From a virus (taxonomy: Duplodnaviria; Heunggongvirae; Uroviricota; Caudoviricetes), in IMG/VR virus record IMGVR_UViG_2939521961_000004: a stretch of DNA of 64,000 nucleotides; one strand, 5' to 3'. Positions 46,401 through 49,400 of the stretch are shown one piece after another. The position numbers are program-made. Position 1 is the first letter of the stretch. The number at the start of each line of letters is the position of its first letter.

Positions 46401-49400
46401 TGGTCGTTCTGTTCCGATTCTTGCTGGTTCTGGTTCACAGAATCGCAGGTTTCAATCCCCTTCACCCATTTCGGATCATTCGGATCGCTAATCCCTTCAA
46501 CAAATTCACCACGTGATGCAGCAAGCAATTTATCGGCGTCAGGCTGGCTGATATTGGCTGCCTGCATAATTTTGTTTACTTCGTCAGCGGTAACTTTTAC
46601 CGGCTCCGGTTGTACGGAATCTTCAGCGGTATCCACATTTTGCGGTAAGTCCGTGTATGTTCCGTTTTTGCGGGCAAGATATTCTTCTTTCGTGATTTCA
46701 GTAGCCCCGGCAGCCAGTGCCTTATCCAGACCAGAAAGTTTGTTTGCGCGACCGTATTTTTCGCCATCCTTGTCGGTGAAGAGGAAGTAGAACGGCCCCT
46801 CACGCTCTACAGATGGTTCGACTTCCACTTTGCATTCGGTTTTTTCGTTGTCCGGAATTGCCGTTTCCACTGCATCAGTTTCTGGTACTGGCGACGAGAG
46901 AGTATCAGTTGCGCTCTGATTTGTTCCTTCATCTTCAAACACGCCCTTTGTAGTCAGGTATTCAGTAATGTATTTGTTCAGTGCCACAGGGTCTTTGTGA
47001 ATGTCGATCGGACGTTCACGGACAAGGCCAAAAATAGTCTGGCGGTCGTAGCGAAGGGCATCAGGCTGTTTGCGCATTGATGCCGAGATACGCTTCCAGT
47101 CTTCGCGGTCGTTGTCGATAACTTCATTTTTTGCCCAGCGATGGATGCTGCCGTCAATGTTTCCGGCATCCACATCACCAGGCCAGAGAGCGTAGGCCAG
47201 TTCGTCATCCAGTGTTTTCCATGTCTGCTTGTATTCGCGATGAATGGCAGCAATGACCGGGCTGATTTTTCCTGTTGAATTTTCAGTGTGCTGTTGATTG
47301 GCTCTGGCGCGGGCGAGATCAACAACAGACGTGTATTTTCCGGTTTCCTTGCGTTCACCTTCGCGACGTTTTTTCCAGATGCGCATCTCTGCCTGAATTT
47401 CGGGCCATTTGGCACCTGGCTTACATTTATGCTTAACCCACCCGATGGCATGCAGCTTAAGCTCCGGATACATGGCGTTAACTTCTGGCATTTTCATCAA
47501 CGCTTCAACGATATGTCCGTCGAATGTTGCCATGTCTTCCTGCAACAGTTCCTGCGCGCTAATCACCATATCAACGGTGATGTTTTCACATGTGTCGAAC
47601 TTAACCATGACAGCGTTCTGTACTTCAGGGGCCAGCTTGTCAAAAGTGACGTTTATCGGATCTGATTCAGTCTCAACCGGGACAAAGGAAGCAGACTCCT
47701 CATCCCAGCGGTTTTCCTGCATATATTCAGCATCCCAGGAATCGAGGGCAGGGCGGGGAATACCGGGTTTATCCTCGCAAACAAGAAATTTATAAGCGCA
47801 GTCCTGAGCAGCCGGATAATGTTCCAGGAATTGCCAGTGAAATTTTGCGCGGGCGCGACGTTCATCACCGGCTTCAATGGCAGTGGCTACAGCGACTGCA
47901 CCTTCTTCCTTTATTGCCTGTTCGTCCGGAATGGCGGCGCAAATAAAGACTTTACTCATTTTGTTTTACCTCATTACAGATTTCAGGGTGAACGAATCCC
48001 TGCCATTGCTGGCATTTTTAATCCGTTGGTATGGTGTTAATATGGCTGGAGGGTTATCCAGCCGGTGTTTCGTTATTCAGGTACAGCGATACTTTTTTTA
48101 CCGGGAGGCATTCACCAGAAATTTTTTGCTCGTCTCTTGCCTGGAGGCAGGATTCTTTACTGGCATAAATTCCGGTAATCACATTCTGTGATTCACCCGT
48201 TATAAGAAAAACCGTCATCATCAGTGCAAATGCTGAAGTTATTGACGTTCTCCGAAAATACCAAGTTCAAGAAGAGCAATTCGGGAAAGTATGGAATTAT
48301 CATTGAGCAGATAAGGCTCATATTTCCTCATATTAATGGCATCTTCAGTAAACTCCCGGTTACTGAGCAGAACACCAATATCAAAACAACCTTCAGACGT
48401 ATTAACGTTTGGTAATAACGTTTCCATTATCGCGTCCTCAACAATGAATTTTGTGATGCGGTGCCTGGTGCCTCCAGGTGACGTTAACCAGTTAACAATT
48501 AACGCCGGATACAGAGAATCCACCCATAACACTGTTTTTGGTTTTAACTGTTCCGCGTGCGCTGAGCCGCATTCACCGCATCACAAAATTCACTTTAAAA
48601 AGGGCGGCAGAGCAGCCACGGAGTAAAACTGATACCGCCAAACGTCACCAGAAAATTGATAACAGAGGGCGTTGCAGCGGGGTTGTCACTTAAGCGTATG
48701 GTCAACCTGACAACCCGGTGTCCTCAACTGGGGAAGGAATAACCCCGCCATACTTACCGCCGCGCCATTTCGCGGATTGCCACAACCGGAAGCGCACGGT
48801 CGACGAAAATTTAACGACAGGCTATCTATGAACCAGCTACCTCGCCGTGCGCTTTCGCGTTATGGTCTGACTTTTCAGGGAAATATCCTTTCAGTAAACT
48901 GTCAGTGCCGGATGCTCACCCGTGTCCGGCGCACGCACTCCACCTCACCCGTGGAGAACTCCTTAATTACCAACCTTAGCTTCGTTGGTTAGCTATTAAC
49001 GCGGGTATGTAATCATTCTGGCAATGCTTAATGCCGCTGCTTTTTCCAGATTGGTGATATCCTGCTCCAGAGCGGACAGATTTTCAGCCTGCTTAGCCCT
49101 GGCTTCATTGGCCCATTTCAGGTCCTGCGCTGCCTTAATTTTCTGGTGCATCCACTCATAAAGTTCATCATCGGTATAGTCTGGCGCGATGATGACGGGT
49201 TCTCGTTTCTGCATGTCGGCTCCTTGTGGTTAGCGCTGCCTGCTTTTAACCACGTCAGGCGAGGTGGTATCCTCTGAGGGGTCTGTTACTCGAGAGGAAA
49301 TTGGTTATGAATACAATCAAGTTTTCTTGCCCAGAATGTGGTGGCGAAGTCTTTGACACATCCTTTAAACCGCATGGCTCTGACAGTTTCGCGGGAGCCA

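Follow-up and report, generated by a model that had tools for sequence, protein, structure and literature searches.

A DicF small RNA and a DicB family gene in a lambdoid prophage matching enterohaemorrhagic Escherichia coli O26:H11

The closest described relative of the locus reported here is the operon dicBF in the cryptic Qin prophage of Escherichia coli K-12, which runs ydfABC-dicF-dicB-ydfDE. In work on K-12, no promoter was found inside this operon; a 190-nt DicF species, whose 5′ end lies 137 nt upstream of DicF itself, is generated by RNase III, the 5′ end of the 53-nt DicF is due to RNase E, and the 3′ end arises by termination, with some read-through to dicB-ydfD (PMC10448788). RNase III also acts on the read-through transcripts, yielding a 72-nt DicF (PMC5069750). 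The 5′ arm of DicF regulates xylR in K-12 (PMC5069750) and pchA in enterohaemorrhagic E. coli (EHEC; review PMC7873438), and the 5′ arm and the loop were both experimentally needed for target regulation (PMC5069750). We analysed a stretch of viral DNA of 64,000 nt (IMG/VR record IMGVR_UViG_2939521961_000004, referred to in its entirety as the window), in which the minus strand carries a DicF small RNA (sRNA) followed by a DicB-like open reading frame (ORF).

Four dicF copies are described for EHEC, as are roles of DicF in the control of pchA and the locus of enterocyte effacement (LEE) and of stx2 (PMC5069750; review PMC7873438). Like the multiple copies in O157:H7 Sakai, EDL933 and 86-24, the locus in the window is an extra prophage dicF-dicB module in attaching-and-effacing E. 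coli; it differs from the O157 copies in that the strains to which the window has a 100% match are O26:H11, O103:H2 and their relatives and not O157. Judging from sequence identities, family membership, RNA folds with covariation and genomic context, the locus is very probably a module for division inhibition, made up of dicF and dicB, in the early-left operon of a lambdoid prophage that belongs to an EHEC chromosome of O26 type.

The DicF small RNA and the DicB protein

An Rfam scan of the whole 64-kb window returned DicF (RF00039) at 48653..48602 on the minus strand with 75.0 bits and E = 1e-14, far over the gathering score of 48, and with a match that spans the full length of the model (positions 1-52 of 52). 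The minus strand from 48654 to 48597 reads TTTCTGGTGACGTTTGGCGGTATCAGTTTTACTCCGTGGCTGCTCTGCCGCCCTTTTT. When the 53-nt RNA was aligned with K-12 dicF (NC_000913.3 1649382-1649434), 52 of the 53 positions were identical, the sole difference being A39G. An earlier note on this DNA, made from the sequence alone, had placed a DicF-like RNA with one mismatch and a terminator-like 3′ end on this segment of the minus strand, and both the Rfam scan and the K-12 alignment upheld that placement, with no divergence in the seed region. The RNA is predicted to fold into a single-stranded 5′ arm (nt 1-15) and a stem-loop (nt 16-52, –15.4 kcal/mol) followed by TTTTT, and this 3′ end, a GC-rich stem plus the T run, was also found by a terminator scan (48619..48604). 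The A39G change turns the innermost pair of the upper stem from U-A into U·G, which leaves the fold the same and shifts its energy from –15.9 to –15.4 kcal/mol. The loop and the single-stranded 5′ arm, the latter being the xylR- and pchA-regulating part, are fully identical to those of K-12 dicF. Its position, with ydfC on one side and dicB on the other within a lambdoid early-left operon, is the one expected of the family. By every sequence-level comparison that was made, the locus is confirmed as a genuine DicF family member, far beyond chance.

Complementarity to the ftsZ leader, which the earlier note had put forward as a check, was found as well. In the predicted duplex, DicF nt 24-53 pairs with ftsZ positions –29..–1 across the GGAG at –27.9 kcal/mol, alike for the A39 and G39 alleles. 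Nucleotide 39 is unpaired in this duplex, so that A39G touches no predicted ftsZ-pairing nucleotide, and G39 remains compatible with a U partner in a target. Shuffled sRNA fragments gave –20.4 ± 3.6 kcal/mol against ftsZ, 3.2% of them matching or beating the DicF value. The ftsZ leader itself was at least 99% identical in 5,389 of 5,425 genomes.

Downstream of DicF, and preceded by a Shine-Dalgarno sequence GAGGA at 48439..48435 (minus strand), the ORF of 62 amino acids (aa) matched the DicB profile PF05358 of Pfam over positions 1-62 of 62 with 125.5 bits (cut-off 27) and the NCBIfam profile NF049927 with 114.2 bits (cut-off 100). By every comparison of sequence applied to it, the ORF is confirmed as a member of the DicB family. 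The DicB-like identity claimed in the earlier note was borne out by these profiles; the protein is, however, no near copy of K-12 DicB, since the two are 63% identical and differ over the C-terminal two-thirds. Residues 1-20 are near-identical and most differences fall in residues 18-62, because a mosaic breakpoint lies inside dicB, after codon 17 (window 48373-48377). DNA identity to K-12 is 58.0% over the rest of dicB (48376..48239) and 53.3% downstream of the gene. A 97-aa in-frame GTG extension of dicB (starting at 48532) and several small minus-strand ORFs in the leader were rejected as genes because they lie inside RNA of conserved structure and are unannotated in RefSeq.

Operon layout, control and processing

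On the minus strand the genes follow one another as repressor, ydfC, dicF, dicB, a ydfD-like gene and an exonuclease gene, after which comes the integrase region, and cro-like and replication genes lie on the other side of the repressor (Table 1). This order, from repressor to integrase, agrees with the earlier assignment of the locus to the early-left operon of a lambdoid prophage. With Qin the locus shares the order ydfC-dicF-dicB-ydfD-exonuclease; unlike Qin, it is without ydfA, ydfB and the promoter dicBp, its YdfD-like protein is 44% identical to K-12 YdfD and starts at ATA, its DicB has diverged, and its repressor is unrelated to DicA. The part shared with K-12 is a cassette from the ydfC start to dicB codon 17 (49214..48373) with 97.7% DNA identity, within which the dicF-dicB spacer (48601..48428) reaches 98.3%. 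K-12 homology stops abruptly upstream of the ydfC start, where a second sharp mosaic junction lies at 49214-49220, and both flanks of the cassette are unrelated to K-12 or about 55% identical.

Table 1. Positions of genes, RNA elements and candidate control sites at the dicF-dicB locus (window coordinates unless a locus handle is given)
Feature	Position	Strand	Basis or remark
Prophage repressor, helix-turn-helix, 132 aa	50632..51030	-	ORF in DicA/CI position; helix-turn-helix protein in identical O26 locus
higB/higA toxin-antitoxin pair	49876-50585	+	Between repressor gene and ydfC
Candidate OL/PL-like promoter and operator	49824..49877	-	–35 TTGACC, –10 TAAATT; half-sites ATTACAAAT / ATTTGTAA
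Zinc-ribbon gene (ECs_2282 family)	49301-49507	+	Between repressor gene and ydfC
ydfC, 72 aa, opening the cassette shared with K-12 Qin	48996..49214	-	ORF; RefSeq ydfC; 97.7% DNA identity to K-12
Long imperfect hairpin upstream of leader	48781..48865	-	Minimum-free-energy fold
Pre-DicF leader, multi-branch fold with 8-bp closing stem	48671..48786	-	RNAalifold; 5′ part of 190-nt precursor
DicF small RNA, 53 nt, G39 allele	48602..48654	-	Rfam, K-12 alignment, fold
DicF intrinsic terminator U-tract	48597..48601	-	Sequence, terminator-like site
dicF-dicB spacer, STnc100-like; 21-bp outer helix round three hairpins	48443..48594	-	Folds, covariation
dicB, 62 aa plus stop, diverged allele	48239..48427	-	Pfam, NCBIfam, Prokaryotic Genome Annotation Pipeline (PGAP) WP_000449175.1
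ydfD-like DUF1482 gene	48054..48242	-	Pfam DUF1482, 48.6 bits; annotated in O26
816-aa exonuclease, next early-left gene	45509..47959	-	ORF; Pfam; annotated exonuclease
Variant hairpins at DicF-equivalent position	L012:2040-2090, L016, L018, L033, L038, L076, L101, L120, L133		

The repressor is 22% identical to K-12 DicA and is therefore of a different immunity type; for the same reason the DicA/Rem control circuit of K-12 was rejected as the regulator of this locus. The best leftward promoter-like site, TTGACC-17-TAAATT at 49852..49824 (minus strand; 9 of 12 consensus positions), lies upstream of ydfC at a distance of about 600 nt. The intergenic region between repressor and cro has, at 51079-51119, an operator-like motif (ATTACAAATTTAA ... 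ATTTGTAA) that recurs at 49827-49877, the two sites being complementary at 17 of 18 positions in a sequence that is AT-rich. The second site overlaps the leftward promoter-like site and also sits just upstream of higB on the other strand. We infer that 49877..49824 is probably the leftward operator and promoter (OL/PL) of the prophage, controlled by its own non-DicA repressor. The higBA pair occupies what we take to be the position of rex (rexAB) in the lambda gene order.

The ydfD-like gene overlaps the end of dicB by 4 nt, which include the dicB stop codon. Its start is ATA (48240-48242) where K-12 has ATG, and PGAP still sets the start there; the next in-frame ATG, at 48221, would cut part of the N-terminal hydrophobic segment. 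The ATA start may lower expression of this lysis protein. The exonuclease encoded beyond it has a C-terminal Rv2179c-like 3′-5′ exoribonuclease domain (221 bits), a partial match under the cut-off to exodeoxyribonuclease VIII, and a long, acidic, low-complexity middle region that is uncharacterised.

The K-12 processing sites were placed on the window through the 97.7%-identical alignment, so that their positions here are inferred, and the ends of the published 190-, 72- and 53-nt species all fall on helices predicted in the window. The same helices are predicted as at the published K-12 RNase III and RNase E sites, leader and spacer being 97.7-98.3% identical. The mapped 5′ end of the 190-nt species (about 48791) falls in the 3′ arm of the predicted hairpin 48865..48781, at the 5′ edge of the leader fold, and this hairpin probably contains the RNase III site for that end. 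For the leader fold, RNAalifold on 23 diverse copies gave 31 pairs, 5 of them with two-sided compensatory changes. The mapped 3′ end of the 72-nt species (about 48583) falls in the middle of the 5′ arm of the 21-bp outer helix of the spacer (48594..48574 with 48463..48443), which is present in both the minimum-free-energy and the centroid fold (z = –4.2), differs from K-12 at two positions, each a G·U wobble changed to G-C, and stops 3 nt short of the dicB Shine-Dalgarno sequence. On these folds, the outer helix is probably where RNase III cuts to produce the 72-nt DicF.

With processing sites, Hfq dependence, targets and DicB-MinC action carried over by homology from the K-12 and EHEC literature, the locus would work as follows. 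Relief of the repressor would allow leftward transcription through ydfC and the structured leader into dicF, where most transcripts would end at the DicF stem-loop and U-tract and some would read on into dicB and the ydfD-like gene. An RNase III cut upstream of the leader, followed by RNase E trimming, would then release the 53-nt DicF, and in read-through transcripts an RNase III cut in the long helix just past DicF would give the 72-nt form. Together with Hfq, DicF would use its loop and 3′ half to pair with the ribosome-binding site of ftsZ and so block FtsZ synthesis, its 5′ arm would act on other mRNAs such as xylR (K-12) and pchA (EHEC), and DicB would stop division at the protein level by bringing MinC to the septum.

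Distribution, annotation and competing readings of the locus

The 1.3-kb stretch from ydfC to ydfD is 100% identical to that of O26:H11 11368, O103:H2 12009, O45:H2 and many other EHEC chromosomes, and over 25 kb of the window (39001-64000) a group of such genomes shows 99.9% identity. More broadly, 3,845 of the 5,426 complete E. coli genomes (about 71%) carried a dicF sequence, in up to 6 places per genome and in 4 places per genome in O26 strains; the exact G39 form was the best match in 487 records. The dicF-dicB pair of the window is already known, and the finding is correct but ordinary, because many public genomes contain the exact DNA, with dicB annotated in it, and multi-copy EHEC dicF has been published. 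The earlier note had expected annotation based on ORFs to miss both elements. This applies to dicF, for which the identical RefSeq loci carry no feature, but not to dicB: on the O26 RefSeq record, PGAP annotates ydfC, dicB (WP_000449175.1) and the DUF1482 gene and leaves out dicF. No feature lay beneath the dicF match in the ten records listed by the dicF-segment search; dicF is annotated in K-12 and in phage Tritos. In the O26 11368 version of the dicF-bearing prophage the integrase is frameshifted. An ALIL pseudoknot, an IS3-family frameshift element (43872-43988, plus strand; 121.5 bits), marks an IS3-family insertion near the left end of this prophage.

Several observations weigh against taking the locus as a working counterpart of the K-12 module. 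The repressor is unrelated to DicA, so that K-12 DicA/Rem control is not transferable, and in place of the K-12 promoter region (dicBp) with ydfA and ydfB stand higBA and the zinc-ribbon gene on the opposite strand, as a result of which a transcript from the candidate PL would have to run antisense to another gene for about 600 nt. DicB resembles its K-12 counterpart weakly over the C-terminal 45 residues, which makes MinC binding an assumption. The statistics of the ftsZ duplex formed by the DicF 3′ half are modest, as the share of equally good shuffles indicates, and the duplex of full-length DicF with ftsZ is no better than shuffles (–38.5 vs –35.3 ± 4.2 kcal/mol); the full-length energy was consequently dropped as a test in favour of the analysis of the 3′ half and loop. 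The loss of the K-12 promoter region could mean that the locus is a silent relic, its sequences intact and its operon promoter gone, with no DicF or DicB coming from it and the other genomic dicF copies supplying the activity. Such a relic would agree with the finding of no internal promoter in the K-12 operon (PMC10448788), with the frameshifted integrase of the identical O26 prophage, which looks defective, and with the number of dicF places in O26 strains. We nevertheless consider it improbable, given that a leftward promoter-like site lies 600 nt upstream together with an operator motif common to the repressor/cro region, that the changes within the ydfC-to-dicB-5′ cassette preserve structure at 97.7% identity to K-12, and that many EHEC lineages carry the locus with 100% identity.

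Another possibility is that the DicF hairpin acts mainly in cis at this locus, where as a terminator or attenuator it would hold down read-through into the toxic genes dicB and ydfD, its role as a trans-acting sRNA being secondary. The hairpin is a canonical intrinsic terminator, its variants in other phages keep the stem base and U-tract and not the anti-ftsZ loop (see below), and terminated as well as read-through transcripts are described for K-12 (PMC10448788). On the other hand, the 5′ arm and loop are identical to K-12, both are reported to be experimentally needed for target regulation (PMC5069750), and cis and trans roles are compatible with each other; that the cis role prevails thus seems rather unlikely to us. 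It is very unlikely, finally, that the DicB-like protein has changed function, its diverged C-terminal two-thirds having no MinC binding and another target. The drop to 58% DNA identity after codon 17 and the concentration of the protein differences in residues 18-62 speak for such a change, but the protein matches both DicB profiles over its full length and above their curated cut-offs, and of about 92 DicB-encoding loci from viral contigs and references, about 28 have this type of allele, always in the same position. Of these readings, a dicF-dicB division-inhibition module in the early-left operon remains the one we favour.

Structured RNA around DicF

In a permissive Rfam scan, the spacer between dicF and dicB (48604..48395, minus strand) gave a full-length match to STnc100 (RF02076) with 37.7 bits and E = 1.4e-6, which is under the gathering score of 47. 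The corresponding elements of Tritos, 75/02 Stx, P1 and D6 behaved likewise, with sub-threshold STnc100 matches of 32.9-39.6 bits, so that full-length matches of this kind came from five independent loci. The spacer shows the architecture of the STnc100 type, an outer helix with inner hairpins that include one with a GGAGGCA loop, and it shares with STnc100/PasD the outer enclosing helix, the GGUGAAU motif and the CACCnGGAGGCACCnGGCACC hairpin. It differs from STnc100 in its first hairpin, in having no terminator of its own, its 3′ end running instead into the dicB Shine-Dalgarno sequence and start codon, and in its location in the early-left operon, STnc100 being found in the late region after tRNAs. 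The spacer was not filed as STnc100 because it is below the gathering score and without its own terminator. A 2026 preprint ties STnc100 to PasD and leaves DicF and dicB unmentioned.

Two full-score STnc100 copies lie elsewhere in the window, both on the plus strand behind tRNA-Met/Arg/Arg clusters of lambdoid late regions: one at 13394-13584 (138 bits) after the cluster 13068-13317, and one at 63413-63585 (105 bits) after the cluster 62392-62643 of the second such region. The first copy is followed by a 616-aa ORF (13807-15657), presumably NanS-p sialate O-acetylesterase-like. The first prophage also carries a sok antitoxin RNA of a hok/sok-type module (8168-8342, plus strand; Rfam, 107 bits).

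Because a core-pattern scan for DicF in species-representative genomes gave 7 loci (three Escherichia, one Shigella and three metagenome-assembled genomes titled Veillonella parvula, Proteobacteria bacterium and Collinsella sp.), too few for covariation, viral contigs were used, among which a scan for the spacer 3′ motif gave 120 loci. The consensus of 57 distinct spacer copies had 39 pairs, with 98.8% of cells paired. Two-sided covariation was seen at 9 of the pairs, compared with 1.3 ± 1.0 in shuffled alignments (0 of 500 reached 9) and 1-2 in slid controls. As the structure was derived from the same alignment of closely related sequences, these figures are good support and not proof, and we conclude that the dicF-dicB spacer is a real conserved structured RNA resembling STnc100. 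For 131 spacer-type elements, the next ORF was DicB in about 92 cases, Kil in about 21 and an Ash/Rha regulator in 5. The idea that spacer elements always precede division inhibitors was rejected in view of the Ash/Rha loci, the TerB-like TciA in D6 and a small membrane ORF in one P1 isolate.

The position that DicF occupies in front of the spacer is variable. Where the spacer 5′ motif could be located, canonical DicF was present in 91 of 123 elements, and the other 32 or so had hairpins of at least 7 types with the same GGCGG...CCGCC stem base and U-tract and with different loops, several of them U/C-rich; the type found at locus L018 reads GGCGGCAUCAGUUUUUUUCUUGAAGUUCGGCUGAUGUCCGCC. Rfam made no DicF call at the variant hairpin of the 75/02 Stx locus (L012), the sole such locus scanned. 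Shigella phage 75/02 Stx and Escherichia phage PhiR5_2 share the layout seen here, a GGCGG...CCGCC terminator hairpin, a spacer conserved at about 90% and a small host-killing gene, but their hairpin is without the DicF 5′ arm or anti-ftsZ loop and the downstream gene is kil, not dicB. These variant hairpins are possible DicF-like sRNAs with other targets.

The leader upstream of DicF is 79% identical, with compensatory changes, to a segment of phage P1 that lies after dmt and has no annotation (L011, MH445380.1, 2486-2609). Two tRNAs and then an STnc100-like element come after the leader-like element in P1, so that parts of the DicF flanks are common to the P1 tRNA region; in D6, an STnc100-like element lies after three tRNAs and before tciA. 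Rfam and ARAGORN led us to reject the P1-matching leader as a C4 antisense RNA or a tRNA: the leader in the window had no Rfam match at E ≤ 10 and no ARAGORN gene, and the P1 segment (L011 2501-2595) had no significant Rfam match. The leader was not found before the two tRNA clusters of the window by sensitive blastn.

Tentatively, DicF might be one of several RNAs that can fill a variable small-RNA slot within a conserved, structured phage RNA scaffold that serves as a processing and insulation cassette before toxic early genes, an idea we regard as possible and would sooner doubt than assert. The scaffold would consist of the multi-branch leader upstream and the STnc100/PasD-like spacer downstream, with the outer helix of the spacer as RNase III site; its parts would flank tRNA genes in P1-like phages, and in lambdoid phages it would stand directly before dicB or kil. 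It would release a stable small RNA and allow the level of the toxic downstream mRNA to be set separately, and the other hairpins of the slot, of at least seven kinds, could be sRNAs with other targets.

The main value of the finding lies in annotation. Although dicF is often multi-copy, it had no feature in the RefSeq records inspected other than K-12, so that counts of this virulence- and division-linked regulator in EHEC must use RNA-family scans. What the copy in the window contributes is an intact G39 allele controlled by a repressor other than DicA, and its induction signal is therefore probably unlike that of K-12 Qin. If the scaffold proposal is true, it would also link RNase III processing with the STnc100/PasD sRNA family. 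The side observations, which are of more interest, suggest that the RNA on either side of DicF is conserved and functional and that DicF-like hairpins with different loops occur in related phages; if this is so, an unexplored set of prophage sRNAs may exist, and STnc100-like elements may have a role in RNA processing.

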